A stretch of 64,000 nucleotides of DNA from a virus: positions 1-64,000 of the IMG/VR virus record IMGVR_UViG_3300042860_003408; one strand, 5' to 3'. The position numbers and the translations under genes are program-made. Shown here in pieces: positions 16,847-59,307 of the stretch. Every line of letters begins with the position of its first letter. Position 1 is the first letter of the stretch. Under the pieces are notes generated by a model. It saw nothing but the letters and a program-made list of their open reading frames with translations, was not told where the DNA came from and searched no databases.

Positions 16847-17467
16847 ATGAAAGGCAAATATGTAGCCATACTAACAGGCGCATTGCTATTGATTAGTAGT
16901 GCGCTTTTTGTGTATAATGGCATAATACAGAAGAAGTACGAAGAGGAAAAGATTAATAAAGAGAGGTATAAAAGCAATGCCGTTGCATTCCAGAATGTAG
17001 CCAATGGATACTTTGAAGAGAACAGGGTCCTACGCTTGAATAGAGACGATTTAAGACAGTCTAATAATGAGATGATAAATACTATAGATTCTCTGAAAAA
17101 GTCCCGCAAAACGCCTCCAAACAAGCCTGGTGACGTCTCTACTGGGGTGACTACAGTTATACATGACACCGTTGAGGTTTTGATACCGGTTCCAGTGGAA
17201 ATTAAGGTAGACACTACCCTTGTTTACAACGAATTGACTAGTGTTAGGATAAAAATTGAAAAAAGTTTACTTTCTGGTGAATTATCTGTCAACAATACTC
17301 AGGTTTTAAACGTTTACACTTCCAGGGAGTATGTGAATGTGTATGACAACTGGTGCAAAAGGCTATTAAGACTAGACTACAAGAAGCATGATGTTGAAAG
17401 ATACACTATAGATAATACCAACAAATTAATTAAAGTTACAGACGCAATAGTAATAAAACATGAGTAA
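16847..17467 (+). CDS. Putative spanin-like membrane protein
   Basis: N-terminal transmembrane anchor, coiled coil and beta-rich C-terminus; adjacent to the endolysin. Confidence 0.5.
   Translation: MKGKYVAILTGALLLISSALFVYNGIIQKKYEEEKINKERYKSNAVAFQNVANGYFEENRVLRLNRDDLRQSNNEMINTIDSLKKSRKTPPNKPGDVSTGVTTVIHDTVEVLIPVPVEIKVDTTLVYNELTSVRIKIEKSLLSGELSVNNTQVLNVYTSREYVNVYDNWCKRLLRLDYKKHDVERYTIDNTNKLIKVTDAIVIKHE
17034..17126. repeat. Dispersed phased inverted-repeat element (inside the spanin-like gene)
   Basis: Left arm GCTTGAATAGAGACGATTTAAGAC; reverse complement of the right arm is GCTTGTTTGGAGGCGTTTTGCGGGAC; inner span 83 bp. Confidence 0.6.
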
Positions 17468-18065
17468 TAGAAAAGAACTAGTAGTAATATTGGATCCTGC
17501 TCACGGAGAAGAAACTCCTGGCAAGCGTAGTCCAGATGGAAGATTTAGAGAGTATAAGTGGTCTAGAGAGATGATTATATTGATTGGAGATATATTGGAT
17601 GATAATGGATTTAGAGTTATGTCTTCTAATGCTTCAAACAAAGAGATAGGATTATCTAATAGAGCAGAGATGGCAAACAATATAGCAGGAACTAGGAAGG
17701 TATTAATATCTTTGCATTCAAATGCTGCCGGAAGTGGTGCTGAATGGATGAATGCTAGGGGATTTAGCGTATACACTACAAAGGGAGATACTAAATCAGA
17801 CGATGTAGCAGAAGAATTAATGGTTAATTTTAAAGCAGATTTTCCTGAATTAAAAGCAAGAACTGATATGTCAGATAAAGACATGGATATAGAAGAGAAC
17901 TTTACTGTAATAGTAAAAGCTAAATGTCCGGCAGTTCTTATTGAATGGTTATTCCAAGACAACAAAGAAGACGTATCAATACTTCTAAATGAAGAATACA
18001 ATAACAGACTAGCTAATTCTATTGCAAAGTCTATAATTAATTTATATAATAAAAATATAATATAA
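17460..18065 (+). CDS. Endolysin, N-acetylmuramoyl-L-alanine amidase (Amidase_3 family)
   Basis: Zinc and catalytic motifs 'ILDPAHG', 'E', 'LSNRAEMAN', 'ISLHSNA' and 'PAVLIE'. Confidence 0.92.
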   Translation: MSNRKELVVILDPAHGEETPGKRSPDGRFREYKWSREMIILIGDILDDNGFRVMSSNASNKEIGLSNRAEMANNIAGTRKVLISLHSNAAGSGAEWMNARGFSVYTTKGDTKSDDVAEELMVNFKADFPELKARTDMSDKDMDIEENFTVIVKAKCPAVLIEWLFQDNKEDVSILLNEEYNNRLANSIAKSIINLYNKNII

Positions 18066-19492
18066 TGCAAATAAATTTTTATAAATCAAGTACGACCGGT
18101 CTGTTTATTCTTGATGATAAAATAGTTCCAGCTGGTTCATTCTCTATGAACATACAAGGAGGTGGTTCTATACAATTTTACAGACCAGATGGCTCTACGG
18201 TATTTGAACAAAGTATACTAATAGAAGATGTATTAGATGAGTCAGGGGATTCGTATGCAAGCATAAGCGCTTTAATAACAGCTGTAGCAGATTTTTTCGT
18301 TAAGGCCTCAGGCGGTGGAGGCTCAACAATAGAACTCTCTACATCGCTGACAGAGACAGTTCCAGGCAAGGCGCTAGACGCAACTGTAGGAAAAACACTT
18401 AACGATATACTGATTACTGCTCTTAAGGACGGATCATCTGCTGTTTATGTAAAAGGCGAAGGCTCCAATATCCAAAATGCAGCAGAATTACAAGCTGTTT
18501 ATAATGCAGCTAAGACAATGTCTCCAGCATTAGGAAATAAGATTACTGTAATAATAGCTCCTGGTAAGTATGAATTTGGTGCGACTGCATTTGTTCATGA
18601 TGCACCTTATATTGATTTAGTATCACTTACAGGTGAAGCTGATGTGTTTATAGGTAGTACAGAAGAAAATACAGAGTATGATTATATTTATGGAATAAAA
18701 GTAACTGCTGATAATACGCTTTTAAAGGGTGTTAATTGTGGTAGTAACACTTTTTATATAGCCGATAGTCTTGATTACTTGACTTGTACTAATTGCATAG
18801 GCGGTTATCTTTCATTTGGGAGTGAAGGTACTGTTTCAGGTACATTCAATAATTGTATAGGTGGTTTATGTACATTTGGTAGTTATGGTACAGCATCAGG
18901 TACTTTTAATAATTGCACAGGTGGTGATTATTCATTTGGTAGTAGTGGTACTGCATCAGGTATTTTTATAAATTGTAAAGGTGGTGATTATTCATTTGGT
19001 TGTGGTAATACTGCATCAGGTACTTTTAAAGATTGCACAGGTTATTATGGTTCATTTGGTGGTTATGCTGGTTATGCATCAGGTACTTTTAATAATTGCA
19101 CAGGTGGTGATTATTCATTTGGTAGTGGTGGTACTGCTGATGGTACATTTAATAATTGTACAGGTGGTGATACCTCATTTGGTAGTAATGGTACTGCATC
19201 AGGAGTATTTAGTAGTTGTATAGGAGGTGATGATTCATTTGGTGCTTATGGAGCCTGCTCGGGTATTCTTGCTAATTGTATAGGTGGTAGCGGTGCATTC
19301 GGGTCTTTCGGCAATGCGCTCGGCACTTTTAATAATTGTATTGGTGGTACTCAATCATTTGGAAGTTCAGGAGAAATTACAGCAACAGCACGACTTTACT
19401 ATTGTAAATCAGGTAGTACATTTCCAACTCCAACAGCAGGTGGTAGGATTATATACTGTATAGACGGAACAAATGCAGCAGTAAATATTTAA
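18065..19492 (+). CDS. Tail-associated beta-solenoid repeat protein (candidate receptor-binding protein)
   Basis: Fibre-type 'LTETVPGKALDATVGKTL' motif, 'VIIAPGKY', then about 10 tandem 20-aa repeats (ASGTFNNCTGGDYSFGSSGT). Confidence 0.65.
   Translation: MQINFYKSSTTGLFILDDKIVPAGSFSMNIQGGGSIQFYRPDGSTVFEQSILIEDVLDESGDSYASISALITAVADFFVKASGGGGSTIELSTSLTETVPGKALDATVGKTLNDILITALKDGSSAVYVKGEGSNIQNAAELQAVYNAAKTMSPALGNKITVIIAPGKYEFGATAFVHDAPYIDLVSLTGEADVFIGSTEENTEYDYIYGIKVTADNTLLKGVNCGSNTFYIADSLDYLTCTNCIGGYLSFGSEGTVSGTFNNCIGGLCTFGSYGTASGTFNNCTGGDYSFGSSGTASGIFINCKGGDYSFGCGNTASGTFKDCTGYYGSFGGYAGYASGTFNNCTGGDYSFGSGGTADGTFNNCTGGDTSFGSNGTASGVFSSCIGGDDSFGAYGACSGILANCIGGSGAFGSFGNALGTFNNCIGGTQSFGSSGEITATARLYYCKSGSTFPTPTAGGRIIYCIDGTNAAVNI
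18780..19380 (+). repeat. Tandem ~60-bp coding repeat, about 10 units
   Basis: The units are visible in the DNA; 18893-18943 and 19076-19126 are identical over 51 nt. Confidence 0.9.
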
Positions 19493-19513
19493 TAACATAT
19501 AAAATAAAACAGT

Positions 19514-19843
19514 ATGAAAAACTTACAATCAACAACGGAAAATAATTGGGTAGAAATTAAACAAGTAACACTAACCCAAGAAGAAAAGGAATTGCTAAGA
19601 AGTACTTCTGAAACAGATAAAGTAGTTAAAAAAACTTTGATGGATAGAATTAAAGCAGAAAGAGAATTAGTAGCTGATGAAGCTGATGTGGTTCTTGCTC
19701 AAGCTGCTTATGATTCAATTAAGCCTGTATTAAAAGAAGGCGATACTTATCAATTAATTGCTGTTAATTTTACTATTGATAATGGTGTCAGAGGTATCCT
19801 TAATTGCAGGGTCAATGATGGACACATTCAAAAAAGATTATAA
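19514..19843 (+). CDS. Hypothetical protein (possible fibre assembly partner)
   Basis: 109-aa ORF directly after the repeat protein. Confidence 0.6.
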   Translation: MKNLQSTTENNWVEIKQVTLTQEEKELLRSTSETDKVVKKTLMDRIKAERELVADEADVVLAQAAYDSIKPVLKEGDTYQLIAVNFTIDNGVRGILNCRVNDGHIQKRL

Positions 19844-19852
19844 TAAATAGTT

Positions 19853-20537: not shown

Positions 20538-20828
20538 ATGAGTAAGTTAAAGCAGTATATTGTTGATATAATAAATAAAGTTAGGCAACTTAAACACAAA
20601 CTATCACATGACAATCTATTTGATATCGTAGCAGGAACAGCTCTTGCGTTTGTTGGATTGAGAATATACCTAGATCATGCAGAGATAGATAAGTTGATAA
20701 TAATAGCTTTACCTGGCCTTTTCAGCTGGCTCAACGAGCTGCTTAATGTTTGGCAAGGATCTAGGTTTGGCTGGATAGATTTAGGCTTTAGGATGTTTGC
20801 AGGTATTACTTTGTATTTTATCATTTAA
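20538..20828 (+). CDS. Small membrane protein
   Basis: 96 aa with about three hydrophobic segments. Confidence 0.55.
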   Translation: MSKLKQYIVDIINKVRQLKHKLSHDNLFDIVAGTALAFVGLRIYLDHAEIDKLIIIALPGLFSWLNELLNVWQGSRFGWIDLGFRMFAGITLYFII

Positions 20829-20907
20829 AGCTCATATAAGCCACGATATATTCAATTGATACATTTATACTATATTACATAGAAAGTGGCTTAAATTGCT
20901 TTAAAAT
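20823..20907. repeat. Dispersed phased inverted-repeat element (the only intergenic copy)
   Basis: Left arm ATTTAAAGCTCATATAAGCCAC; reverse complement of the right arm is ATTTTAAAGCAATTTAAGCCACTTTC; core span 84 bp. Confidence 0.75.
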
Positions 20908-21008
20908 AGCATCTACGCTCATTCTACGCTACTAAATACATTAGTTACAATATGAAAAGGACAACTAAGAAATCTGGGTGCAAGTCGCCTAAAAAATGAT
21001 AATACATC

Positions 21009-21650
21009 ATGAAATATAATACTATTAACACAATAATAGACGATATATTACTTGAAATAAATCGAGGGAATATATCTGAGAGTGAGCAGCTATCTAGGAA
21101 TCAAATAGAACAGTGGATTATCCAATATAGAGCCGTTCTGCTTAAGCAAGATATAGATAAGAATAGGGATATAAACAACCAATATATCCAATATCTAAAC
21201 AGCGTTGAGCTGTCTCAACATAGAATAGGGGTAGGTAGAAATAACGTCTTAAAAAGCACTACTACTATACCAGAAACTATAGACTTCCACTTTAGAAGCG
21301 GCATAGTTGATGTAAGAGATTCTTTTGGCAATGAGATACAATTCTCAACAGAACGAAGAGCTATGATACAGCAAGACAGACGATATACATCATCAGAATA
21401 TATATCATATATTAAAGGTAAATATATTTATGTATCTGGTCCTGGATTAATTGAAAGTGTAAATGTAGCATTAATAGCTGTTAATCCATTTGATATATCT
21501 GGATTTAGTGCAGATGACGTATATCCGATGCCTGCAAATATGATACCTCCAATGAAGGATATGATAATCCAAAAAGAGATTAGGCATATGCTAGTTGCTG
21601 ATGATACAAATAATGCTAAGGATGACACAAATATACAAGCCAACAAATAA
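21009..21650 (+). CDS. Tail ring protein (crAss-type)
   Basis: 'TINTIIDDILL', 'QIEQWIIQYRAVLLKQ', 'YPMP' and the terminal 'DDTNNAKDD'; position in the tail block. Confidence 0.7.
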   Translation: MKYNTINTIIDDILLEINRGNISESEQLSRNQIEQWIIQYRAVLLKQDIDKNRDINNQYIQYLNSVELSQHRIGVGRNNVLKSTTTIPETIDFHFRSGIVDVRDSFGNEIQFSTERRAMIQQDRRYTSSEYISYIKGKYIYVSGPGLIESVNVALIAVNPFDISGFSADDVYPMPANMIPPMKDMIIQKEIRHMLVADDTNNAKDDTNIQANK

Positions 21651-28196: not shown

Positions 28197-30448
28197 TGAA
28201 GAAAACTAATAAGAAATTAAAAAAATATAAAGATGGTACTCCATGGTATATGGATGGCGCTATAACAAAAGAAGGCAGTAGGGCTGCTAGTACTATAGGC
28301 GGAGTAGGCAATGTGGTATCAGGCGCTAGTACACTTGCGTCCTATTTCAATTCTGGCGACGAGGGGGATTTGTCAAACTACGTCACATCAACACTTGGGA
28401 TGGCTGGGCAAGGAGCTGCAGCTGGAGCTGCATTAGGGCCATGGGGAGCTATAGCTGGAGGTGTTATAGGAGGAGCAGCTGGACTAGTTATGCAGAAGAA
28501 AAAAGAAGCTGAATACAACAATAAAGTAATCCAGAAATCTATAAACAGCAATTTAGACTCAATAAGCATGGCGTCAAATAATATCAAGTCCCGCAATTCT
28601 ATTTATTCTCCAAGGAATTATTCAGTTCCTGGATATAAAGATGGGGTTGCATCGGCAATCAATCCAAATGCACTAGTATCTAATGGAGAAGGGTTTAGGG
28701 ACCCTATAACAGGCAGAGTTGGAACATTCCCAGGCGAGCCAAATAACAATGATAGTCTTGCTGTACAATTACAAGAAGGAACATCTATATACTCAAATGC
28801 ATACAAGCTTCCTTATGGTAAGAAACTAACACCGGCAAAGGCAATAGCTAAAATGGAAGCAGTACAGAAAATTGACGACAAGATGGCTAAGTTTGGTGGA
28901 CAAATAAATGATAACACTAAGAAGCTTAACGATATAAATAGAAAGAAGCAAACTGAATTGCTTAATATGAATACACAAATAGAGAATATGGGAAAATCAA
29001 AACCTAAATTTATGCCTAAGTTTGCAGGAGGGACGCATTATTACACAGAACCATTGTCTACGTACAGTAAACTTCCATTTGATAAAGCTACAGCAGAGAG
29101 GATGGCAAAACAAGGCATGTACTATTCTGGTGCAGACGAGAGCGGAAGACATAATTGGCATGCTCAGTTTAAACCTGAGATATCAGATAAATTTAATGAG
29201 GCGCAAAGAGCCGGTAAAATATATGCTGCTTTAACTGCTGATGAAAATGGATTAATGAGAATAGGTGGTGTTAGCAAGCTAGACCCAGTTGCAACTACAA
29301 ATCTAGGAGCAGATAAAGAGCAGCTGCCTATATCTACCCAAGTAGCATCAGCGCAACAAGCTAATCCATCGTACAATGGTATAGTGCCAGGAGTACTAGA
29401 GTCTGATTGGAATACAATGATGAATAGAGGAATTAAAGCTGGACAGCCTGGATATAACCCTGATTGGGTATTTAAAGGACAGGCGGTTCCGTTGTCAGAA
29501 GTACGAAGATCTGCAGCAGCAGGGGAACAAAATAGATATACTTTAGATAATACAGGTACAGCATGGATTCCAATGACTAATACGTCCACTAAGCCTATTT
29601 TAAAGCCCTCTACGGCAGTTTCTCCTCAAAAAGGTTCTACCCTACAGCAAGCACCAGCCGCTCAGGAAACGGCCTTAAAACAAGCCGAAACGCCAGCAGT
29701 AGCTACTCCAGCAATTGCGCCTAAAGTAGCAGCAGTTGAACCTCAGAAAGCAGCGACTGTTGAAGAGCCTAAAAAAGAGTTTACTGCAGAGAATGGATTG
29801 ACAACAGAAGTGTTCAATAAAGGATTTGGAGACTATGCGTCCGAGCTTGGATACAACTTAGCATCATTAGCGCCTGTAGCAGCCAATTGGTTTGGAGCTA
29901 AACCTGAATATGAGACTCCAAGATACGAAACTGCAATCAATCCAACATTGAGGGTTAATATGTCTAAGCAAGTGGAAGATGCTAGAAAGAAAAGTCAGAT
30001 AGCTAGATATAACCAACGTGTTATGAATTCTGGAACTGGAGCGGGCACTACATTTGGAGCTTCTACGTATGCAGCAGGGCTAAACAATTTAAATGCCATA
30101 TCTGCTAATGCTGATAATATCAATAATGAATATAGAGCTAAATCTGCGGCAATATCAAATGAGATAGCGTCTAGAAATGCTAATGTATTTAGAGAAAATC
30201 AGAAAAGTAGAATGCAGACTGATGCAAATGTTAGAGCACATAAGAAAGCAGCATTAGCTCAATTCTCTGATTATGCTCAAAATAAGCAATTGATGAAGAA
30301 TCAGAAAGAAAGAGATATATTAAACTCAGAAGTGTTTGCGTCATTCGCTAATTTACCGGAAGCAGAAAGACAGAAGTTCTTTGGAATGATGACGTCTAAG
30401 AGGCCTGTATTTAAAAAGAAAACTACAACTAAAACAGCAACAACATAA
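28196..30448 (+). CDS. Ejection/cargo protein with a glycine-zipper membrane segment
   Basis: 'GAAAGAALGPWGAIAGGVIGGAAG', 'ALVSNGE' and repeated K-[YF]-x-x-G motifs; first gene of the cargo block. Confidence 0.65.
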   Translation: MKKTNKKLKKYKDGTPWYMDGAITKEGSRAASTIGGVGNVVSGASTLASYFNSGDEGDLSNYVTSTLGMAGQGAAAGAALGPWGAIAGGVIGGAAGLVMQKKKEAEYNNKVIQKSINSNLDSISMASNNIKSRNSIYSPRNYSVPGYKDGVASAINPNALVSNGEGFRDPITGRVGTFPGEPNNNDSLAVQLQEGTSIYSNAYKLPYGKKLTPAKAIAKMEAVQKIDDKMAKFGGQINDNTKKLNDINRKKQTELLNMNTQIENMGKSKPKFMPKFAGGTHYYTEPLSTYSKLPFDKATAERMAKQGMYYSGADESGRHNWHAQFKPEISDKFNEAQRAGKIYAALTADENGLMRIGGVSKLDPVATTNLGADKEQLPISTQVASAQQANPSYNGIVPGVLESDWNTMMNRGIKAGQPGYNPDWVFKGQAVPLSEVRRSAAAGEQNRYTLDNTGTAWIPMTNTSTKPILKPSTAVSPQKGSTLQQAPAAQETALKQAETPAVATPAIAPKVAAVEPQKAATVEEPKKEFTAENGLTTEVFNKGFGDYASELGYNLASLAPVAANWFGAKPEYETPRYETAINPTLRVNMSKQVEDARKKSQIARYNQRVMNSGTGAGTTFGASTYAAGLNNLNAISANADNINNEYRAKSAAISNEIASRNANVFRENQKSRMQTDANVRAHKKAALAQFSDYAQNKQLMKNQKERDILNSEVFASFANLPEAERQKFFGMMTSKRPVFKKKTTTKTATT
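29593..29685. repeat. Dispersed phased inverted-repeat element (inside the cargo gene)
   Basis: Left arm GCCTATTTTAAAGCCCTCTACGGCAGTTTC; right arm GGAAACGGCCTTAAAACAAGC; core span 83 bp. Confidence 0.75.
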
Positions 30449-38400: not shown

Positions 38401-41400
38401 CAAAGAAGCCGCTTTAGAGCCTGTTTCTGACACGCAAAAAGCAGATGTAGTAGAAACATCAACTAACACTCAAAAGTCGCTAGAATCGCCTGAAAATGGC
38501 CTTAAAAGCGATGCTAGCGAGCAAGTTTCTGGTAAGAAGAAATTTAAGAAGAGGACTAGTGGCGATGTAGATAAAATATCTGACTTAGGTGTAAATGCTG
38601 TTGGTCCTACAAGACTGTCAACTAGTCATGCAGAGGAAGATAATTTAACTAATAGCGAACAAGCTTGGGCTAGAAAAAGGATATCATCTCTTATTGAAAT
38701 CAGTGATACTGAAATTGAAATGGAGAACGGTGATATTGCTATGGGTGTAGCTAACATCTTAAAGAATATTATTACACTATTCTCTGGCGCAGAAAGAGGC
38801 ACTGCTTACCACGAAGCATTTCACATTGTGTCTCTTGGGTTAATACCAAGAAATAGAAGGATGATGATATATGACTCAGTTAGGCGTACTATACCATCAT
38901 TGAGTGATGCTACAAATAAGGATATAGAGGAATACTTAGCCGAGGAATTTAGAGTATGGAGAGAGACTAATAAGATCGGCATTAAGATACCGATGCTTAG
39001 ATCTGTATTCAGAAAATTCTCCAACCTATTTACTGGAATGAAGTCTGCAAACAAGTCTGATATAAATAGATTATTTGAGGATATCGAATACGGTATATTT
39101 AAAAACAAAAAAGGTCCAAAGGCTAAATCTGAGCAATCTAAATTCTTTACTAGATTCTATGTAGATGGAGCTGCTAGAACTTTGAAGTCAAAAGGATTCA
39201 ATGCTATCAATACATTGGATATGCAATACGAAGTAGCCAAGGGGTTAGCATTCTCATTCATAGAATTATCTGGAGTTGAAAAAGTTTCTGATATCCGCAA
39301 TATGAGTAAAGACGTACTATATGATAGTATTCTTGCAGAGTATGAATATATGGAAGAAAATGGAATGGAAGATACATTGAAATATAAAATATATGAAGAT
39401 ATATTGGATAAATTTGATGAGGAAATAGTTCCATTAATAAATAAAGAATTATCTTCATTTGGGATAGCCCCAGCTGTATTCGATGTAGATGGAAACGAAA
39501 TAGAGGATAACGATAAAGATATCGTAAGTAACGAGATAGCTAAACATACAGTAGAATCATATAAGGTTCCTAAGTCTGATAATATTCCAATGGAGGTTAA
39601 ATTCTTCTTATGGACTATCCCTCAAAAAGAGAAAAATGCAGACGGTGTTGTTGTAGATAAATTTAACCCATTAACTGGCTTTAAATTATTCTACGACCAG
39701 ACCACGTCGTGGGTTACAGTTGCAAGCGATTTAGGTCATTTGAAATCGTACACCGAGATGAGGAATAAAATATATTCTCTTGGTGTTGTATCTGGTAATT
39801 TATTCTATAGAAGCGTATTAGATAAGCTTGACAATTCTAGCGATAGATTTAAAACAGCATTCTTTGCCGCAGTAAAATGTCATAGACATGACTTTGCGAG
39901 TATAGCATTTACTGGAGACAAAAATGGAAACATGGCTGAAGCCGACAGAAGACTTAGGGTTATAGAGTCAAAGGCTACAACTGCCAAGATAACTAAGCCA
40001 AAAGAATGGGGTGAGAACATGATGTCTATTGGATTTTTATTCTCTGATAGTGTTGATGGGCCAGTATTTAACAAGGCTAATGCCGAGTCTATAATAGCCA
40101 GACATAAAGCACTTGTATCATTTGCCGGTAGATTAACAAATCCACTAGAAGCTGAAAAGATTACTGACGAGCAAATTACTGCTGCTATTAATGAGTATAT
40201 TGATATATTTAATAAAATAGGCATATCTATAAACGATGCAACTATAGATGAGATAATCAAACATTCTTATCCAAATGCATCTAGAAAAAACGCTATAGCT
40301 AGTTTAATCACCCAATCAAAACCAGAACACCCATCATTTGTTCTTACCAACATCATAACAGACCTAGTTAAGAATGATGGAAAGCTTATAGTAAACAGGA
40401 AAGAGAAGGTAGATAGAAAAGAGATCTACAAGTCTCAGAAGTCGACAGGATTTATAGCTATGATGTATTTCAAGGCCAATCCAAATATAACAGAGACCAC
40501 TTCTACCGGGGCTGATGGAGCCAAGGTATATGAGATATCTCTACCAAACTATGTGACAGAGACGGCAGAAAGAATATCTACTGACACTGAATACAGGGAT
40601 AAAGTAATGCAATCTAGTTTTGCTTCAGGCAGGATTGGAGGAGCAGCTTTCGAAGGAGACAGAACTACTGTTGGAGGCTCTATAGTACTAGACCAATTAC
40701 AATCAGGTGAATCAAAGGGATTAAAGGTTAAGACATTCTTGAAATTCTATGAAGATAATTCTGGAGATAAAGGTAGAGATTACTTTGCACTATCTCCTAT
40801 GGAGGATTATATGATGAAAATGGCAGCCACTAATTCTGGATATATGTTATGTCCTACTATGGCTGATAAGAAATCGTGGTACATGTTTGCTGGCATTAAA
40901 ATGCCGTCATTTAGCGTATCTAAACAAGAAGGAACTCCTATTGCTGTTGATATGAATTCATTGAAAGATGGGCTAGTTAGACAATCAATCACATTCCCTA
41001 CAAAAACAGTAGCTATATTCAATGGATACTTTGAGGCAGAATATCTTGCAATGCAGGATGCTTGGAGTGCATGGAAGGTTGCAATGGGTAATAAAAATAA
41101 ACTAGAACAAACATATCACTACGGCGGATTCTCACAAAGAGGTGCAAATAAATATACCACAAAAGGCAAATGGAATTCAGGACTTGGTAATGGTATGAAA
41201 TTTAGGCATTTCGATGAAATTTCTATTGACATAAAAGGCGACGGCTCATTTGTAAATCTAAATGAATATCAAGAGGAATTGATAGACCAATATGGAGTAA
41301 TTAATGGGATGACTAGATTCTTTGAGGAAATGGATAGTAAAATATTCAATGCATCAAATGAAACTAAATTCCAAATAATGAATGCCACCTTGGCTAATTC

Positions 41401-44400: not shown

Positions 44401-47400
44401 TAATGGAACGTCTGTATTTAGTGGCGTAAGAAACTATTATGAATCTACACCATTGATGGCAAGGCTTAGAAATAGCTCTGGGTTAATAGTAGGAATAAGT
44501 CGTGGTTTATTATTTAGAACCTCTAGACAAGTATTATCTATTCTTAACAAAGTAAATATACTTGCAGGAAGAGAAGGTTTTGACAATAGCAAATTCATGC
44601 ATGGCGTATCAAGGTATGTCGAGACGGCAATTAAGGATTCTTTTTATAGAAAATATGCAGAACAAAACGATATAGATATAAATAGCTTGTTCTTTGGAGA
44701 AGACACTGTCGCTAAGGAATTATTCCATATCAAGTCTGCTATAAATAACGGTCATTTACCTGGATATGAAAACAATGTCTTCTTGAAGGTATTGTCATAT
44801 ACTATGCATAGTAAATCAGAGGAGTCTTATCCAGACCATGTTACTATAGACTCATCTGCGAAGGACGATAAAAATATTCAAGAGAAGATAAAGTACTATT
44901 TTTCTGAATTATTAAATCCAATACTTGAAGATGAATCGCAAGAAGGCCTTAGTGAACAAGAAATAAGCGCACTTAAATCTAGAAATAAAGATAGGGTTAT
45001 GCTTAAGGATTTTGCTAAGAGATTCATACTATATCAATTTTATAGCACTGGTGACAATAGCGCATTAAATTACGTTAAATTATCTGAGGATGATAGAATT
45101 TCACTGGAGATTAATTCAGGGTTAGTAGATGCTAATACTGGAGCACCAATCAAGATTGCACTATACGACTTTATAGATGATGTGTTGACGGAACTGAATG
45201 AATTATCATATGAACATACTCCTGGAGTAGCGCTTCAAAATGATGTTAAATTCTTGGAAGATTTGTTCATTAGTAGATGGTGGGATAATGAACTAGTTCC
45301 AACTACCACTGCATATAAAGTAAGAAAAGGTCAATTTGATGAAGATGGGCATCCATTAGTAGATCAGAAACCTAAGAAAATGTCGACTAAAAAGATGCTT
45401 GGTATTGAATATGAATTGGAATTTATAGACACTGCTGCTAGACCTATTGGATCTACATCTGATGGAAAACATCCAGTATTTAAGCCATTCGTTAAGATAA
45501 TCAAGACAGGCACCAATGGAAGACAGTTTGAAATACTATATAAATACATAGGAAACTCGACAAGGTCTAATGCTAAAGGCGATGTGTCTATTAAACCAGT
45601 ATATGTTGCTGTTGACAAAAAAGGTAGCAAAGCATCTGGTCTTGCACTTATAGAGTCTAATTCAAAGACTTCTGTAATAAAGACAAACGAACTTCCACAG
45701 TCAAATATAAATTCATCTATATTCTCGAAAGAGGCTGGATTTGATAAAGTAAGCTGGTTTGATATGTTTATGGGTCTTGAAGATAAGTTCGTTGAGAGCT
45801 TAGGTGCTAGCACAGTAGATAAAGCAGTGACTAATGCAATAGATAACAATAGTTATTCTATGTCTTATTTAGATAATGCTATAGAAGATGCTGGAATTAC
45901 AGATAGCGCAAGGATAGCCTCAATGAGGGAGGAATTCGCTAGAGGCATTTTAAGCCGTTTTAACGAACTCAATTTACCGGATAATACAATTGCCCAGGAA
46001 GATAGAGAAAGTGCCTTAGAAGAGCTTAAAACAAGCGCAGAGGCCTATCTAGGACAATTTATTAGGAAAGTAGAAATGCAACCTAGCAATAATGCTAGAA
46101 GCATTAACATATACGCTGGTACTGGAGAAAATGCAAACTTAAGTAATCTCGCAATAAGACCATTTACTTTGCCAACAGGATCCTCTAGGCTGAATATGAT
46201 TAAGGGAGATATCAGCTTTACTAGCGTAGAGCAAGCGTTCCAATTAGCCAAATACACGTATACTGGAAATGTAAGAGATGATGGTAGCTGGCAGCCGCAA
46301 ATGCTGTCTGGTGGAGGCTTTGGGAATGAGATGTCAAAAGAGGATGATGAGTTCAATTGGAAACTGGCTGGACAAATACAGAACAGTAAAAACCCTGCTG
46401 AGGCCAAAGCCCTGGGAAGACAATTTAAACATTTGGACGTAGATAGATGGAATAAAGCCTCTTCTTCTATCATGAAAGAGTTATTGCTAGAATCATTTAA
46501 ACAAAACCCTGATGCACTTCAAGAATTATTAGCAACTGGGAACGCAATACTTACTCATACGCAAGATAAAGGCAAGTGGAGTACTGAATTTCCTCGACTT
46601 CTTATGGAGGTTAGAGATGAATTAAACGCAGATCTTACTACAGAAGCAGAAGGCGAACAGGATTTAACTAATATTAACGAATCTAGCACGCTTACTGGAT
46701 ATCAAGGAAGAAAGTCTGATGTAGCAGACAATAGAGAATATAATTTCTATTCCACATCAGAAGAGGAGGCCAGGGATTATGGAAGTAATGTTTCTAAAAA
46801 ACGAATAAGCCTAAATAACTTCTTATTTAAAACAGAATTACTACCCAATGGGACGTCTGTCTATACAGAGGCCTATGATAAGATATATAAAGCATTTCAG
46901 GAAAAATATGGATCTCCATTTGATATATTGAATAATGGAACACCAGAAAAAATAGAGCTTATGAATAAGTTCTTTGAAATGGTAAGAGAGGCTGGATTTA
47001 GTGGATATACAGAGATAAGAAAGAATAATAATTTTAGTCAATCAGATAATAGGTATATTGTTACGTTTAATCAAAAGTCTACTGCTAAATCAATTTCGAT
47101 TGCATCTGAATTCACTAATCATTCTGGTGGCGCTTATGGTGCTGACACCTTCTGGGATCAAATTGGTAGAGAATATGGTGTAACTGATAATAGGCATTAC
47201 AGACAAGAAGATAATAAGTCTTTATCTCAAGCGCTTAGAAATAAGAAAGTTGAAGCCACTGTTCTTACAACGGAACAGATGGATAAAGCTAGAACTGAGA
47301 TAGAGAAATTGCTAGGCAAGAAATACCCGGATACAAAAGAAGGCAACCTGCAAGTAAGAAATTATTATCAAGTGTCTAATGCAGATGCTGTATTTGCAAT

Positions 47401-50637: not shown

Positions 50638-53600
50638 ATGTGCCCAAATATTAATGATAAAAAAATAAGGAATGATTTTAATAAGATCGTTCAAGCGTTC
50701 GGTGGTCGACCAATGACTATTGATGAGTTTAAATACAAAGAATTGCGTGATGAGCGTAGCGGGGTCGATGACTTCGCTATGCAACATGCATACGCAGTTT
50801 GGGATAAAACAAATGGAGAGCCAAATTTAGACACTCCGGATATACTTAACTATTCTAAATTTGTACTTAGTGGAGATAAGAAGTATAAGGCTGAATACGA
50901 GAAGAATGTAAATAATGGAGCTGGAATATTGCCTATATCTACAAATAGGGATTTATATAAAGAACTAAATCTATTAAATGATGATGGAAATATCTTAACC
51001 TTCCCATACTCAAAGTTTCCTGACAATGAAAAAGGCGAGGCTAAATTCATAGAGGAGGTGTTTAATAAAAAGTCGTCTAGAAATGACATCCAAGGTAAAT
51101 ACTCCTTATCGTTTAAAAAGTCCCCTAATAGTAAAGGTAGAGTTATATGGATAACTAAGCTGGATGAGCCAAAAGAGCTGCAAGGCGAGATTGATTTTGA
51201 TACTCCTGTATATAGCACACAAGAGAGATTGTCCGACTTATCTGAGGCTGATGAGATTATAGTTTCAAATTCGATTAAACAGACAGATGTTGTTCTATTT
51301 GGACATCCAACTATAGGAAAAAGTTTCCTTAAAAACAATGGAGCCGATAGTTTTATTTCTCTAGATGACGACTATGCAGAAGAGATAAATAGAGAGGTTA
51401 GCGCCATTGCGATAAAATATAAAGTAGCCGAACATTTAGTGAAAGATGGCGGAAATATGCAATGGAACGTCGAGTATAACGATATGATGCAGAGGCTGTT
51501 TGATGCTGCCAAAAAAGAGGCCGCCTTATCTGGTAAAATGCTGTTCACGTCAAACACTAATTTACTTAGAAACAATTCGTCTTCATTTGATAGAGTAATA
51601 AACTTAACTGATAAAGAATTCAAAGACAGGGCTAATGCTAGAGGAGTTAAGTATGATATTAATGAATGGAAGGCTCAAATAAATGAAGTGGTAAGTAAAT
51701 TTCCAAAAGAAAAAGTTATTACTACTGATAAATATCTATCCGACCTTCTTCCGAAAAAATCAACAGGAAATGACAGCGGAATAAATACTGTATTCGAGCA
51801 AAATCCAGAATTATCTAAAATTGGAACAAAGGAACAGTACTCACGGTATTTAGAAACGATATTTCCAGACAGCAAAGTAAAAGACATTGTATACCACGGA
51901 GGATCTCCTGCCGCAGATTTTAACAATCCTGAGTTTGGAACTAGTGGGTTCCATGGATTTTTTGCCACAATCAAAAGTGTTGCAGATGAATTCGCAAACA
52001 GATGGACTAGAAATAAGGGTACTACAGGAAAAACAAAGGCTATACTTGTTAACATACAAAATCCAGATATTACTGATAAATTGTACCAAGGAGAGTATAA
52101 AGAGTCTGTTGAATATATAAAAGCAAAGATAAATGAAGGCTCTAATGATGGAATTATAGCGACAAATACAAATGATAAGTTCTCAGATAAGCTTGGGAGT
52201 TATGACCAATACGTCGTATTCGATAAGGAGCAGATTCATATTTTAGGCTCTAAGCAGGATATAGAAGGATTTAAGGCATTTGTAAAAACGACCGATTCTA
52301 AGGCGATTTCAGCCACTCAAAATAACGAGGATAGGCTAACCTCCATGTCTGCCGAGAAAGTGGCTCAGAACGTCTCTAAACGCCAAATAAAGGCCATTGT
52401 AAGAATAGCCGATGACCTTAGTAGAAGGTTTGGTGTAAAGTTCAATGTTATGAATAGAAATACATCTATGTTTTATGGAGTTTCTAAGTCAATGAATACA
52501 GGAGCATATTATAAAGCTGGAGGCGCTGTATTTTTCTACGATACAATAAAGCCTAGTTATATTATTCATGAAATGTTTGGTCACCCAATGATGTTTGCAT
52601 TAAGAGCAAGCTCAGATCCAAAACATAGAGAGATATATGACGCGTTACTTGCGGAGGCAATGAAAAATACAGAGATAGTTAATGCTGTCAACAATTCATA
52701 TATTGACGACGCTAAGACCATAAAAACATATGACGATGAAGTTGTAGGAGATGAAATAATTATTAGGTCTATAGAAAAAGAATATAACAATAGAGAGAAT
52801 AGGAAGATAGCATACTTATGGTCTAGAGCTTTAAGAGCTCTGACAGAGACTATTAAAAGAATATTTGGAAACAACTCCATACCAACAGATATAAATCCAT
52901 ATATATCAATAGGAGATATGCTGGATTATGTATTGTACGGAAAGAATGCTGTTGATATATTATCTCTAGAGGATAAGGACTTAATGGCAAAGTCAGTCGA
53001 CTCGATTACAAATGAAATAAAGGGAATAAATGGAGCTAACATAGCTATAGCTGAATTTCTTAATCTGTTTAAAAGCGATACTTCTAAGCAAAGAGCAATA
53101 GAGCATGGAATAAATGAATATTCAATTGAGAAAGAAAATGATTGTGCATATATTTTAGCATCATTCTCTCATCAGTTATACAAAATGTCTATTTCTAGAG
53201 ATATAATAGTAGAAGATGGAAAAACAGGAAATCGCTTTGAGTTTAAAAAAGTTGATGATATATATCAATTCCCAACTGACGATACTTTATATGGGTTAAA
53301 AAACTCTCACGTAATAGCATTTCTGAGGGCCGCTAGTAGGCTTGGAGATGGCGCCATTACAATTAAGTCAGATAGAACTGAGTTTATTGGCGTTATTATG
53401 AGATTTACTCCATCTATGCTTGTGTCTAAAATAGATGAAAATACAGTAGTCTTGTTTCCAGTAGACAGAATGGCTGATATAGGCCCAGACTCATTTAATG
53501 TCTCATATAGAATGCTTGACTCAGAGATGGTTACATCGGATGAATTAAGTAAGTCTACAGCAATGGCTACAATGAATAGGGTTCTTTCTGGATTGAAATC

Positions 53601-56600: not shown

Positions 56601-57669
56601 ATTTTTCCCTGGCGCTCAAAGAAAAGAAGGGGCTAGGGAATGGGATTTGATAAAAGATACACTATACTCTGCATACAGCGTTGCTGACAACAATCTAGTA
56701 ATAGATCCAAAATATGCTGAATATATAACTCCAGAGCTAGAAAATCAAGTAAGCTTACTTTCAGCATCTATGTCTCGTAAATTAGATGGATCGTTAACTG
56801 GAACAGAGAGAACTGCAGCACATAGAAATCTAGTTGGCTCAATGATGCTTTTACATAAGAATTACTTATTGTGGGCAATCCAAGATAGGTTCCATCCAAA
56901 AATGTATAGGTACGATCTAGGGGTAGAGACTAGTGGTATCTATAGATGGGGTAATTTAAAGACGGCTCCAAAAATATGGATGAATATGTTGTTCATGAAA
57001 ATGTCAAATGTCAACGAGAAATACGAGTACAGTCAAAGGTACTCAGCACAAAGGCTTGCTAAGGAATTCACGTTCTTTATAGCATTGTCTGCTGCAGCAA
57101 CTATATTTAGCAAGTACGCAATCGGGGACGATGATGATAAGATAAAAGAGTCATGGGAGATGTTAATATATTTATTGATGGCTCGTGTTACTATGGAGGT
57201 TGGTGCCATGATGTCTCCATCCGATGTTTATAATCTGCAGAAAGAACCATTTGGTACTATAGGTATAATTACACAAGGCAGAGAGATATTAGATATGGTT
57301 GGAGATGGTTCTTATGGAGACATAGTTAGAACCGGACACTATGAAGGCTTTAGGAAGATAGATAAATCATTATTGAAAATCATACCTATAGCTAAGCAAT
57401 ATCAACCATACATTGGAAATCCCAACTTTAAGAAAGATGATGCGTTTCTAAATGAAAGTATGTTTATACCATATAGTAGGGTTAGAGATTTTATTTGGCC
57501 TGAAAACTGGAATGCAAGAGCTAGAGAGAAATCTAAGCAATTGCTTCAAAAGAAACAAGACAAAGAAAATATGCTAAGAGATGCAGGCGTAGATCCTGAA
57601 GAAATAAAAAGAATGAGAAAAAAATCTGAACACATTCGGGATTCTATAAAAAGAGAATACGGTTATTAA
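50638..57669 (+). CDS. Large cargo/polyvalent protein (2343 aa)
   Basis: N-terminal 'CPN'; P-loop 'FGHPTIGKS' (~51300); ART-like module 'DSKVKDIVYHGG...YVVFDKEQIHIL' (~51790-52285); zincin-like 'IIHEMFGHP' (~52567); long helical C-terminal region. Confidence 0.7.
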   Translation: MCPNINDKKIRNDFNKIVQAFGGRPMTIDEFKYKELRDERSGVDDFAMQHAYAVWDKTNGEPNLDTPDILNYSKFVLSGDKKYKAEYEKNVNNGAGILPISTNRDLYKELNLLNDDGNILTFPYSKFPDNEKGEAKFIEEVFNKKSSRNDIQGKYSLSFKKSPNSKGRVIWITKLDEPKELQGEIDFDTPVYSTQERLSDLSEADEIIVSNSIKQTDVVLFGHPTIGKSFLKNNGADSFISLDDDYAEEINREVSAIAIKYKVAEHLVKDGGNMQWNVEYNDMMQRLFDAAKKEAALSGKMLFTSNTNLLRNNSSSFDRVINLTDKEFKDRANARGVKYDINEWKAQINEVVSKFPKEKVITTDKYLSDLLPKKSTGNDSGINTVFEQNPELSKIGTKEQYSRYLETIFPDSKVKDIVYHGGSPAADFNNPEFGTSGFHGFFATIKSVADEFANRWTRNKGTTGKTKAILVNIQNPDITDKLYQGEYKESVEYIKAKINEGSNDGIIATNTNDKFSDKLGSYDQYVVFDKEQIHILGSKQDIEGFKAFVKTTDSKAISATQNNEDRLTSMSAEKVAQNVSKRQIKAIVRIADDLSRRFGVKFNVMNRNTSMFYGVSKSMNTGAYYKAGGAVFFYDTIKPSYIIHEMFGHPMMFALRASSDPKHREIYDALLAEAMKNTEIVNAVNNSYIDDAKTIKTYDDEVVGDEIIIRSIEKEYNNRENRKIAYLWSRALRALTETIKRIFGNNSIPTDINPYISIGDMLDYVLYGKNAVDILSLEDKDLMAKSVDSITNEIKGINGANIAIAEFLNLFKSDTSKQRAIEHGINEYSIEKENDCAYILASFSHQLYKMSISRDIIVEDGKTGNRFEFKKVDDIYQFPTDDTLYGLKNSHVIAFLRAASRLGDGAITIKSDRTEFIGVIMRFTPSMLVSKIDENTVVLFPVDRMADIGPDSFNVSYRMLDSEMVTSDELSKSTAMATMNRVLSGLKSKLHTAERSKNVTQSYLDSLKLLIKDVEKHEAMVGMIKFIEFSANEIKDVRVKLDKMVVLKNTGKWLDDEQLFDISKNFLSMYDSATAAISTIINDSPSIAKGFPKEDIDSLIATVRKIRSEIDDIKSMLIGLNEYQYVNTIKREGLNYRSTTVKGITKKSSDTSEQTVFSESDDIGQLTMLVGAMVMSPKEQHRILFAKVEEAKMNARRTMETDGVILGLKEKWDAVRAKRKYATFSRYMEKNDNGKTTGYLLSDLKYGSFYKNYDIFMNDLNFRYGLTGHGAIPIDEKEAAEFQKEKNAWMEANVERIFTPEYYKLRENISPSTQELMTEYDDILRSFYSKFRDENGIIRTERMTLEDKESLFDIKKRKEALSMLTYADGTPKTVGSYDYNVAIELQEFYKATTDGIKYKFNVDAFERAKENARKTLTAAEFKEWMKENTTVRLKDEFYEMISSSANEMQSEKWKELYQIRKDLLKYNRDMNTMEVIGTRVEANKHIAELIKRIDKKLSDTRVKTTSTARFKFKDIAEVVPNQAYNSEIERLSADKSSAGVNALNEFKKNSGYYNKKGKFTLYSHWSKIVPKNKSFIEISPNFIWQELDESSPLYNKDYDKSREKYGMQPKRSMYDNSKEYNRLTSNKEDKEFLEAYRSAMQKANENYFYMNRSNPNRLPQISTSFFAKVVRGSNWISGFIKALKDSMNYMPEDLFIGDSDSSGKYYADGTAVKHIPTRYRTMLEDTNMISRDLLGSFAMYYSSSLNFVEMSKVRGTIETILEGLRNVQIHDPKGKEVKTGGRMYQKAAEFVNSEVYGDDKVSALEFSISRGNIATSLYNMIRRMFNKEKVTSGRIGSVSVDKFIKAIISYTRIVNLGYNIKSIFSNFGGAKVQQKIEASMGSFFTEKGLMFANKEIALRLPSIVASSTNRSNDKITSLMRYFGITRSNESDMKNLHGWKFARYVEDKFWYGPYEAGDFAIKAPSMIAILDNFRLYEGEFYSREQFLTRFFPGAQRKEGAREWDLIKDTLYSAYSVADNNLVIDPKYAEYITPELENQVSLLSASMSRKLDGSLTGTERTAAHRNLVGSMMLLHKNYLLWAIQDRFHPKMYRYDLGVETSGIYRWGNLKTAPKIWMNMLFMKMSNVNEKYEYSQRYSAQRLAKEFTFFIALSAAATIFSKYAIGDDDDKIKESWEMLIYLLMARVTMEVGAMMSPSDVYNLQKEPFGTIGIITQGREILDMVGDGSYGDIVRTGHYEGFRKIDKSLLKIIPIAKQYQPYIGNPNFKKDDAFLNESMFIPYSRVRDFIWPENWNARAREKSKQLLQKKQDKENMLRDAGVDPEEIKRMRKKSEHIRDSIKREYGY
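52293..52382. repeat. Dispersed phased inverted-repeat element (inside the 2343-aa gene)
   Basis: Left arm CGATTCTAAGGCGATTTCAGCCACTC; reverse complement of the right arm is CGTTTAGAGACGTTCTGAGCCACTTTC; core span about 85 bp. Confidence 0.7.
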
Positions 57670-57704
57670 TTTTGCGGTTACAACAATATAACTAGCAACA
57701 AGAC

Positions 57705-57749
57705 AAAAAAAAGACTACTATTGAGTAAAATCAGTAATAGTCTTTTTTT
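57705..57749. terminator. Bidirectional rho-independent terminator between convergent gene blocks
   Basis: A8-GACTACTATTGA-GTAAAA-TCAGTAATAGTC-T7 at the strand switch. Confidence 0.85.
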
Positions 57750-57752
57750 ATT

Positions 57753-58343
57753 TTAAGCCAACTTGATACCTTTTAGAGAATCAATTAAAGCGCTATCAAA
57801 TTCATCAATATATGCTGTTGCTAAATCAAACTTCTTATCTTTCAATTGCAATACATCATTAGACGTTTTAATAGGCTCTATAGCAGATACCATTAAGGCA
57901 TTATAGAGATTCGAATTAAATGTTGAATTCCAAAAGCTTAATATCTTCTTTTTTATTTCTACATCAATTTCGAAGTACTTGTTTAGCTTAACTTTCTCAT
58001 AGGTTTCAATATATTTTTCTATTATAGAGAATGAGTATACATCTAAAAATGTAGGCTCATTTTCTTTATCAGAAAATCTAGCAGAATATTTTGATTTAAA
58101 ATTTTCGTTTTCCTCAAATTGGTCAATCTTTAATCTACTGGACATCTCCGTATTAATTGCAACTTTAAATGAGTTTTCTATATCAGGTGTATTTAAATCA
58201 TAAATATACCCATTATAGACAGCGTGGCAGTCATTTTTAAGCAAAGACCACCAATCTGCATATTTATCAAATATTAGCGGCAATAATAAATAAAAAGATA
58301 GATTAAGACCATCAGGAAATTGTTTCAATTCCATCATTTTCAT
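57753..58343 (-). CDS. Hypothetical protein
   Basis: 196-aa ORF overlapping the end of the nuclease gene. Confidence 0.6.
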   Translation of the reverse strand: MKMMELKQFPDGLNLSFYLLLPLIFDKYADWWSLLKNDCHAVYNGYIYDLNTPDIENSFKVAINTEMSSRLKIDQFEENENFKSKYSARFSDKENEPTFLDVYSFSIIEKYIETYEKVKLNKYFEIDVEIKKKILSFWNSTFNSNLYNALMVSAIEPIKTSNDVLQLKDKKFDLATAYIDEFDSALIDSLKGIKLA

Positions 58344-59307
58344 AATATTCTCTCCTATAATCCCATAAATTATTGACTGTATGCCAATGTATTTCTGAGA
58401 TAGTTTTATTTATTCTTGGTATTTCTGGTTCTAATAATTCAGGACTTACAGAGAAAACTCTACAGTCATATGGACTATTATTTTTGATTGCAACTATGTA
58501 CGTCTCAAACGACCAATCAGAAAGGTCGACTTCTTTTATGTTTTTCATATACCAAATTATAGCCATCCAGTAAAAAGCCATTTGACCTGCATATTCATAC
58601 TCTACAAACGATTTTTTAAAGTTTGAGGTGTCTACAGTGGTCTTTATGTCTATTAGTTGAATCACTTTATTTTCTTCATCAACAGTTAATCTGTCAATTA
58701 ATGATTTGCATTGGTATACTATGTTGTCTTCTAACTTATACTCCCAGTTTATATGGAATTCGTTTTTAGCCCAGAATTTATCAGAGTCTTCTCTAAATAG
58801 CAATTCTTTGGCTTTTTTGTGTAATAACACGTTTTCTTTTGTTATTTTAAGACCATTTAACTCAGCCCAACTCATCGTTTTCACTGAATTTGACTCTGAC
58901 CTCAAGAACTTAATGTACTGCTTCAATTTTAAGGCCATTTCTAGCCCCTTAGCGGCACTTTCTTCGTCTTTCTTACCTGTAGTACTATAGTTATTTTTAA
59001 ATGCCTCTAAGGCCTTTAAAATAGGCTTCTCGGCCTTGCTATTAATATAGTCTTGACAGAATTTCTTTTGTTGCGCAGAGCTTGGTGTTTCAAAAGTTAA
59101 TACCTTGTATTCTTTCTTGAACTCCTCCTGCTGTAGTAGATACATATGAGTCATTATGCCCTTATCTATATACTTTCCTTTTAATCCCCCGTCTTTCCCA
59201 TCTAACATATCTCGGTAGTCTTTAGGCGATATTTCAAATCGCTTAAGACCACTTCTTGAGATACGTGAATTGTCATCATAATAAGGGATAGTTATATCCA
59301 TTGTCAT
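58312..59307 (-). CDS. PD-(D/E)XK nuclease (RecE/ExoVIII-like)
   Basis: 'ISRSGLK', 'G...H..LLQ', 'NE', 'KSLIDRL', 'IDIKTT' and 'Y..QMAFY'. Confidence 0.85.
   Translation of the reverse strand: MTMDITIPYYDDNSRISRSGLKRFEISPKDYRDMLDGKDGGLKGKYIDKGIMTHMYLLQQEEFKKEYKVLTFETPSSAQQKKFCQDYINSKAEKPILKALEAFKNNYSTTGKKDEESAAKGLEMALKLKQYIKFLRSESNSVKTMSWAELNGLKITKENVLLHKKAKELLFREDSDKFWAKNEFHINWEYKLEDNIVYQCKSLIDRLTVDEENKVIQLIDIKTTVDTSNFKKSFVEYEYAGQMAFYWMAIIWYMKNIKEVDLSDWSFETYIVAIKNNSPYDCRVFSVSPELLEPEIPRINKTISEIHWHTVNNLWDYRREYYENDGIETIS
58926..59026. repeat. Dispersed phased inverted-repeat element (inside the nuclease gene)
   Basis: Left arm ATTTTAAGGCCATTTCTAGCCCCTTAGCGGCACTTTC; reverse complement of the right arm is GCCTATTTTAAAGGCCTTAGAGGCATTT; core span 95 bp. 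Confidence 0.75.

Follow-up and report, generated by a model that had tools for sequence, protein, structure and literature searches.

Dispersed inverted-arm DNA elements within and between the genes of a crAss-like phage

Crass-like phages are among the most abundant viruses, and their transcription control and DNA handling are little known. Does a pattern of about 100 bp that recurs on both strands of one such genome, mostly inside unrelated genes, form a true family of elements, and if so, at what level is it read and for what? The question is raised by bases 1-64000 (the window) of IMG/VR record IMGVR_UViG_3300042860_003408, a genome of 85,865 nucleotides (nt; here G000). An initial annotation of the window described seven strong copies of an element with two inverted arms around a variable core, and a weak copy at 4308; all seven strong copies are present where it placed them. 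We report that the family is real, that the constraint lies on the nucleic acid and not on the protein, and that the orientation of the copies and their positions before gene starts point towards transcription control rather than pure topology.

An arm matrix (28 nt), trained on 12 arms (6 window copies), was scanned over the window and over the unseen part of G000 (64001-85865; 21,865 nt). The first hidden Markov model (HMM) of the element was built from 7 full copies oriented by gene strand, with the copy at 17034 left out of training. Related loci were retrieved with the major capsid protein (441 IMG/VR stretches, 80 of them kept; 69-86% identity) and with a three-sequence alignment; searches with the 750-amino-acid (aa) protein alone or the exonuclease alone (Table 1) retrieved nothing, and megablast against a collection of phage genomes found no close relative, only short distant matches. 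A sequence-only covariance model of the element was scanned over 30 whole relative records, and the relatives G001 and G002 were analyzed as whole records. Protein-family scans covered a subset of 37 open reading frames (ORFs) of G000. Anatomy was read from 38 distinct copies from G000 and relatives, aligned to the element model.

Detection of the family inside and outside the window

Tests inside the window alone could not tell the family from chance. The two halves of each copy were scored for local complementarity, and the fraction of 3185 window positions scoring at least as high was 0.089 (17034), 0.0013 (20823), 0.149 (29593), 0.646 (38410), 0.017 (45945), 0.284 (52293), 0.032 (58926), and 0.646 (4308). 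Strong self-complementarity was confined to the copy at 20823 (top 0.13%), by eye the sole clear inverted repeat; five of the eight claimed copies fell within the top 9-65% of positions, which is not unusual, and the first description of the arms as mutual inverted repeats is not confirmed for them. Inverted pairs counted against their span (50-140 nt) showed no excess at 82-86 or 94-97. TTTTAARGCC with one mismatch occurred 18 times (11.3 expected; 5 of 100 shuffles reached 18), and GSCACTTTC occurred 4 times against 0.54, but this pattern was derived from those four occurrences. Arm words were not among the top-enriched k-mers relative to 60 codon-preserving shuffles. Of 16 matrix matches of at least 14 bits, 11 were the matrix's own training arms; the other 5 compare with 3.4 in 40 synonymous shuffles, and no lone arm stood above chance level. 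The codon-shuffle control proposed in the initial annotation failed to single out the family within the window.

The unseen part of the genome gave a different answer. Exactly two matrix matches of at least 14 bits were found there (21.1 and 21.0 bits), at 72343 on the plus strand and 72405 on the minus strand; the two arms are inverted and face each other, with an outer span of 90 nt, equivalent to the main class's hexamer span of 84 nt. When this part was dinucleotide-shuffled 500 times, matches at or above 20 bits numbered 0.008 on average; the highest-scoring inverted pair had 11.5, and 0 of the 500 shuffles reached 20. The HMM recovered the copy absent from its training (17043-17123; E value, 5.7e-5) but gave no match at 4308, even among all matches listed to an E value of 100, and the weak copy is not supported. 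The exact unit TTYTAAGSC has 13 occurrences in the genome (4.5 in shuffles), 8 of them within the 1.06% that the elements cover. We accept the family over chance, or over a cherry-picked set of weak matches, because the out-of-sample scan found this eighth copy, at 72339, with a score that no shuffle reached. The family is thereby confirmed, with eight copies in G000: six coding, in five genes on both strands, and two noncoding (20821 and 72339).

A scan of related crAss-like phages had been suggested as a check, and it was positive: 24 of the 30 relative records held covariance-model matches, with about 8 sites in G001, 7 in G002, 6 in G003, 5 in G007, 4 in G008, and 3 in G009, the closest relatives, and one weak site each in the more distant ones. 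About half of the relatives' copies are at orthologous places (17034, 45941, 58929, and 72339, with 29590 in G002 only). The seven-copy HMM also found new copies in the flanks of the capsid locus, some of them noncoding: in L019 and L021 a copy separates the portal gene from its neighbour, where G000 has an 18-bp gap only. In the distant relatives the one match is about 4.2 kb away from the sigma-factor gene, and in G000 copy 72339 is 3.8 kb away from it; because of this similar distance, they are probably the same site.

Anatomy and level of constraint

Each element has a left arm with the consensus CATTTTAAG-n3-TTCTAAGGCA and a right arm, its mirror, with the consensus AGAAAGTGnCTTAGAA-nn-GCCTTTAAAATGGCC. 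An arm consists of two, sometimes three, TTYTAAGSC units 10-11 bp apart, and this spacing places all units on one face of the helix. Successive unit spacings were 10 nt in 30 of 32 measurable copies, 53-55 nt across the core in 35 of 35, and 12 nt in 35 of 35, values measured on copies selected with an HMM that penalizes indels, so that a fixed spacing is partly built in; the outer units were 75-77 nt apart in 28 of 29 copies (model coordinates). On the left, GC-rich blocks peak at model columns 6-8, 17-19, and 26-30, and on the right at 73-77, 86, and 97; they sit about 24, 34, and 45 nt from the dyad. The helical phasing of 10-11 bp first noticed by eye was borne out: the period is strongest at 10.5 bp in the GC/AT profile of either arm, and, when 10-11 bp power was ranked against 4000 random 100-nt windows, 6 of the 8 G000 copies came within the top 3%. 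Information content is lowest, almost nil, in the core between the arms, which is fixed in length and free in sequence.

Other parts of the first description needed correction. Hexamer spans, when measured again, were 84, 83, 95, 84, 85, and 95 for six copies and could not be defined for 17034; the two spacing classes (83-85 and 95-96) are an artifact of a hexamer lying further out, after the outer GGCC, in the copies at 38410 and 58926. Nor are the arms matched to one another copy by copy: across the 38 copies, mean complementarity was 20.7 with a copy's own right arm and 21.2 with the right arms of other copies, and the arms are symmetrical because both match one consensus, not because pairing keeps them so. 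Co-varying central palindromes seen by eye were likewise rejected (the central 22+22 nt pair at 9.7 within copies and 10.2 between them). The direction of an element is set mainly by AGAAAGTG, adjacent to the inner right unit; no mirror of this word on the left is as well conserved.

Three levels at which the pattern could be kept were compared. The coding copies at 29590, 45941, and 58929 have a common frame and similar peptides, and those at 38405 and 52291 are read in the other two frames relative to the motif; three frames among the coding copies, together with two noncoding copies, rule out a repeat at the protein level. Single-sequence RNA folds differ between the eight copies (z from +0.5 to -3.5), RNAalifold predicted 0 pairs on 13 sequences, and Rfam at the gathering threshold found tRNA only; an RNA hairpin was rejected as the main explanation on these grounds and for want of covariation between the arms. 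Since the arms do not co-vary and the copies have no RNA structure in common, it is double-stranded DNA that is read.

The prediction of reduced synonymous variation in relatives was upheld, most clearly in the exonuclease gene that holds copy 58929. Synonymous identity was scored as the frequency with which sequences that agree in an amino acid also agree in its codon (pairwise, uncorrected for phylogeny), across 10 distinct, codon-aligned orthologues with a median pairwise nucleotide identity of 62%. It averaged 0.60 over the gene, 0.91 on the left arm (residues 97-106), and 0.89 on the right arm (residues 120-128); other windows of equal length averaged 0.57 (maxima, 0.79 and 0.84), and none reached either arm. 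Amino-acid identity on the arms was ordinary (0.61 and 0.54). The top 12 of 299 eight-codon windows all lay in residues 93-109 or 119-128, and the unit codons Leu TTA and Ala GCC/GCA were identical in 9-10 of the 10 orthologues, while nearby Leu codons varied freely.

A weaker repeat of this result was seen in the membrane-protein gene with copy 17034 (6 orthologues, 33-49% protein identity). The element region had a synonymous identity of 0.67, the highest for its length (0 of 76 other windows reached it), and the most nucleotide-conserved window was the inner left unit; the right arm alone was unexceptional (0.61, reached by 31% of windows). The claim that the constraint is on the nucleic acid and not the protein is supported, by the three frames, the noncoding copies, and the synonymous sites frozen on the arms. 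The codon comparisons indicate that, inside genes, the arms are held by selection acting on the DNA itself.

Gene context, orientation, and competing explanations

The eight copies are listed in Table 1. Linkers or domain borders hold four of the coding copies. The gene downstream of copy 20821 is at the position of the homologue of phi14:2 g074, the gene order around the copy matches phi14:2 g074-g073-g072, and ORF 21595-22083 is at the position of phi14:2 g073, annotated as "IHF subunit". Copy 20821 is followed by GCATCTAC and a GCTACTAAAT stretch, which resemble those after other noncoding copies.

Table 1. Copies of the element in G000, with host genes and orthologous copies
Element	Strand	Location	Host gene or flanks	Orthologous copies	Remarks
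17034..17128	+	coding	206-aa membrane-protein gene 16847-17467, residues 63-94	G001 20006; G002 76174	degenerate; membrane protein aligns gap-free
20821..20914	+	noncoding	from stop codon of ORF 20538-20828 (96 aa) to 95 nt before gene 21009-21650		overlaps the 96-aa ORF in its last codons only
29590..29687	+	coding	750-aa protein gene 28196-30448, residues 465-498	G002 66178	Ala/Pro/Gln-rich linker, not alignable with relatives
38405..38505	+	coding	6070-aa virion RNA polymerase gene 32405-50617, residues 2001-2034	no copy detected at matching place in G001 and G002	low-complexity linker; additional outer AT hexamer
45941..46038	+	coding	virion RNA polymerase gene, residues 4513-4545	G001 45823; G002 50585 (260-620 nt before stop of shorter genes, 4522 and 4533 aa)	just before extra C-terminal domain train
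52291..52384	+	coding	2343-aa protein gene 50638-57669, residues 552-583		occupies whole short linker between two conserved blocks
58929..59028	-	coding	exonuclease VIII-like gene 58312-59307 (matches phrog_412), residues 96-129		same direction as minus-strand gene; exonuclease orthologues align gap-free
72339-72436	- (sense)	noncoding	downstream end of 2.2-kb ORF-free stretch		outside window; about 340-440 nt upstream of replication genes

Two observations concern the surroundings of these copies. The virion RNA polymerase of G000 is about 1540 residues longer than its counterparts in G001 and G002, and the extra C-terminal part starts right after the element at 45941. The ORF-free stretch (72000-74192) lies between the sigma-factor region and the replication genes, and an Rfam scan found nothing there.

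Two regularities went unremarked in the initial annotation. The first is orientation: in G000 all eight copies run in the direction of the genes around them, and across all data 19 of the 24 coding copies are sense oriented, the five exceptions being weak matches. The second is a link to gene starts: noncoding copies start at the preceding gene's stop codon or just past it, stop 43-150 nt short of the following start codon, and lie upstream of the homologues of phi14:2 g074 and g092 and of the replication module. The L019 and L021 copies precede the gene at the g092 position, and the copies in L086 and L087 likewise lie between the portal gene and that gene; like copy 20821, the L086 and L087 copies are sense oriented. 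Noncoding cores are AT rich and often read TTGRTA-N16/17-YATAGA, a weak promoter-like core; the copies are often followed by GCCTCTAC and, 25-30 nt past the element, by a GCTATAAT-like hexamer. The GCCTCTAC word, as an observation in its own right, stands directly after noncoding copies at several non-orthologous intergenic sites (window 20915-20945; L086, L087, L088, and L110) and is flanked by short complementary ends (TAGC/GCTA, TAGCC/GGCTA, and GGCC/GGCC).

Promoters of crAss-like phages offer a comparison. In a study of host-polymerase transcription (10.1101/2020.03.07.982082), the middle and late promoters carry a tripartite motif and are most often upstream of homologues of gp069, gp66, gp074, gp092, and gp093; 17 of 137 hits lie in coding regions, and nearly all hits are in sense. 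The elements resemble these promoters in being multi-copy, sense oriented, sometimes coding, and placed upstream of g074 and g092 homologues. The tripartite motif is not found in them: the phi14:2 promoters upstream of g070, g075, g108, g110, g092, and g093 show an A-tract, TTTGC, and TAnnTTTG, whereas the conserved parts of the element are its palindromic arms.

On account of the position and orientation of the elements, we tentatively prefer to read them as phased protein-binding platforms tied to middle or late transcription. The geometry suggests a sequence-specific protein that holds both arms, touching the four to six units, and bends or wraps the spacer; it would probably be a small oligomer or a dimer of dimers. 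Such a platform could serve as an operator or enhancer around promoters or as a roadblock to elongation, with the bound protein acting as a promoter activator, a repressor, or a stoperator-like block. Gaps of at least 45 bp number only six in the late module (1-57.7 kb), so internal regulatory sites must be written through genes; the same platform would be written through coding sequence in any available frame, preferably in linkers.

Two candidate readers may be named: the protein encoded shortly after copy 20821, at the "IHF subunit" position, and a phage sigma factor of the extracytoplasmic function (ECF) type, which would act with RNA polymerase. The latter is a 208-aa protein encoded on the minus strand in the early region, outside the window (genome 76216-76845; L004:12316-12942), with two domains above Pfam cut-offs (Sigma70_r2, E value of 6.8e-12; r4_2, E value of 7.5e-12). 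The near-complete relatives all have it (17 of 17, 28-43% identity), as do 22 of the 30 records overall, and it could be the cause of a branch-specific promoter dialect. We know of no description of sigma factors in crAss-like phages.

Several points weigh against a role in transcription, or lessen the evidence for one. Matches at orthologous coding places are partly plain protein homology, many of the 24 coding copies are mutually orthologous and not independent, the orientation calls were possibly helped by a purine-rich sense strand, and the unit spacing is in part a product of the HMM, as noted above. The promoter-like core is weakly conserved even among 15 noncoding copies, with the information sitting in the arms. 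The distance from copies 38405 and 52291 to the next gene start, 5-12 kb, would be unusual for a promoter. The elements lack TAnnTTTG, unlike the six phi14:2 promoter regions compared; TTTG-N17-23-TAnnTTTG occurs 8 times in the genome, with no occurrence within or beside an element, and Bacteroidota-type promoters were rejected as a feature of the family. A reading of the right arm as a promoter (-35 GAAAGT and -10 TAAAAT) was also rejected, as the consensus leaves a spacer of only 14 nt. Finally, the sigma factor does not discriminate, being present in element-rich and element-poor relatives alike.

Another possible, though doubtful, reading is a dedicated DNA-wrapping station every 4-13 kb, at which a phage-directed protein complex would grip four to six phased units, loop the spacer, and act genome-wide on elongation or topology, through stoperator-like silencing or pacing or through programmed gyrase capture.

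It is unlikely that the sites are purely architectural, with an HU/IHF-like or similar nucleoid protein nucleating on the arms for compaction, organization, or packaging. AT and GC blocks phased on one helix face, around a spacer fixed in length and free in sequence, would suit wrapping. One report mentions conserved IHF-annotated genes in the structural block of crAss-like phages, with a suggested part in DNA compaction during assembly (PMC7886860), and copy 20821 is directly upstream of the gene pair at the IHF-annotated position. A term search of the crAss001 structure paper (PMC10172136), on the other hand, found none of the words IHF, HU-like, and DNA-binding. ORFs 3-227 and 21595-22083, first taken for HU/IHF-like proteins, had no Pfam match at an E value of 0.01 or below and no solved-structure match at 0.1 or below (best of those listed up to an E value of 1, 0.13), and that identity is unsupported. 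Spacing, first described as even, was more regular than random in two of three genomes by a test on the coefficient of variation of gaps (P = 0.008 in G000 and 0.034 in G002) but irregular in G001 (P = 0.43), so that the regularity is moderate only. An architectural site, moreover, needs neither the orientation rule nor a position before gene starts.

Strong sites for gyrase or another type II topoisomerase, relieving supercoiling in long, co-oriented, heavily transcribed operons, were the explanation first favored, and we consider it quite unlikely. As described (PMC6379681), the Escherichia coli gyrase motif spans 130 bp and is dyad symmetric, with a 36-bp centre and a 10.75-bp GC period in flanks that are thought to wrap the GyrA C-terminal domains; it is too degenerate for standard motif finders and is read indirectly. 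The geometry of the element recalls this motif and the strong gyrase site of phage Mu, with a dyad, a central part of about 36 bp, and flanks with a GC period of about 10.5-10.75 bp, and arms phased about a dyad are what would be expected of DNA on a protein surface. The information is differently placed, however: in the gyrase motif it sits at the cleavage centre, whereas in the element the conserved words fall in the arms and the centre is the least conserved part. The element also has three GC blocks in each arm and is shorter, at about 100 bp against 130. A symmetric enzyme leaves the orientation rule unexplained, and no phage topoisomerase was found among the 37 ORFs scanned. The one gene labelled topoisomerase, beside copy 20821 by the annotation of a relative, is tail ring protein 1 according to Pfam.

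A transcript-level element, that is, an RNA hairpin serving as a processing site, terminator, attenuator, or antitermination signal, is decidedly improbable. The copies are oriented with transcription, and three of eight single folds beat nearly all shuffles (z of -3.5, -3.1, and -2.6); against this stand the five unremarkable folds, the lack of any consensus pair or covariation between arms, and the Rfam result given above.

That the copies are relics of a small mobile element inserted into genes, either like a miniature inverted-repeat transposable element or in frame like the Rickettsia palindromic elements, is very improbable. Inverted arms, a length of about 100 bp, and occurrence in linkers recall such relics, and presence varies: G001 has two copies in a gene that G000 lacks, and where L086 and L087 carry a copy between the portal gene and its neighbour, G000 has only its short gap, a difference that involves the whole spacer and is uninformative on insertion. 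The host proteins of G001 and G002 align without gaps across 17034, 45941, and 58929, the three alignable orthologous coding places, and there has therefore been no recent insertion there; on this ground the in-frame and transposable-element versions were rejected. In addition, the core is not conserved between copies, arms within a copy are no more complementary than arms of different copies, and strong synonymous constraint at about 62% nucleotide identity speaks of function, not decay; neither a target-site duplication nor a pair of filled and empty sites differing by exactly one element was seen, and no transposase search was made.

Chance resemblance in an AT-rich genome, arising from codon usage and frequent Ala-Leu-Lys/Glu peptide words, would fit the in-window results (self-complementarity unremarkable in 5 of 8, and spans, k-mers, and matrix matches at chance level) and the shared frame and similar peptides of three coding copies, but it is barely credible given an out-of-sample copy in noncoding DNA, noncoding copies in relatives, and synonymous sites frozen on the arms. 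The remaining probability falls to other functions, for example, replication-linked roles.

Kinship with known systems, other features, and significance

Literature searches found no description of the element, including in crAss-like phages; they did not extend to Rickettsia palindromic elements, BIME/RIP, T4-type PeSL cassettes, baculovirus hrs, or the nucleosome-positioning TATAAACGCC. We class the elements with the dispersed protein-recognition repeats of phage genomes, of which the dispersed operator-like repeats of mycobacteriophages are the nearest published kin in kind. Cluster A stoperators (PMC4351075) are many dispersed asymmetric sites oriented with transcription and proposed to act on transcription along whole operons. 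The G000 elements are likewise dispersed, oriented with transcription (8 of 8 in sense), and found in and between genes. Stoperators are, however, short single sites for a prophage repressor in temperate phages, whereas the element is a 100-bp composite of four to six phased units in 7-8 copies; the ORFs scanned in G000 gave no sign of a lysogeny gene, and no repressor was identified among them. The Cluster O repeat, as the same text presents it (PMC4351075), is also dyad symmetric and genome-wide, with about one third of its copies coding, a predicted dimeric binder, and locations mostly not at predicted promoters, but it is a single 17-bp palindrome in more than 30 copies, with no phased multi-unit arms, long spacer, or orientation. 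P1 parS (PMC2910045) resembles the element as a composite with repeat boxes on two arms around a central part (in parS a bend site, which lets a single protein complex hold the two arms), and differs from it in having one site per replicon, two kinds of box, and a defined IHF site; neither ParA nor ParB was found among the 37 ORFs scanned, a set that does not cover all ORFs. None of the definitions compared (mycobacteriophage repeats, P1 parS, and the gyrase motif) is fully matched by the element.

Further features of the genome were noted. Eight head-to-tail 60-nt units (64-80% identical to the reference copy) at 18757-19362, in ORF 18065-19492, encode a 20-residue tandem repeat. An intergenic word of the early region, AATTCAAAT / AATTCAATTCA, is repeated at 67040-67119 (four tandem copies), 69267-69578, 77581-77762, 78557-78959, and 83936-84109 and could be an early promoter or operator word. 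ORF 205-630 matches a DNA N-6-adenine methyltransferase (Dam, PF05869; E value, 2e-30). GC-rich hairpins followed by T runs at 13072-13119 (after the gene ending at 13071), 10387-10481 (after the capsid gene), and 57670-57752 (between convergent gene blocks) look like ordinary intrinsic terminators.

If the elements are wrapping stations, they could underlie the carrier-state persistence of crAss-like phages. The element may also help explain why particular linkers are retained in giant multi-domain genes. As a cis-element with a clear consensus, fixed geometry, conserved positions, and strong selection even in essential genes, the family is directly testable, and it offers a handle both for pull-down of the reader protein and for internal regulatory sites in a 57-kb operon nearly without intergenic DNA. 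Overlapping codes at the DNA level constrain phage protein evolution, and current annotation and codon-based analyses of these genomes ignore them.

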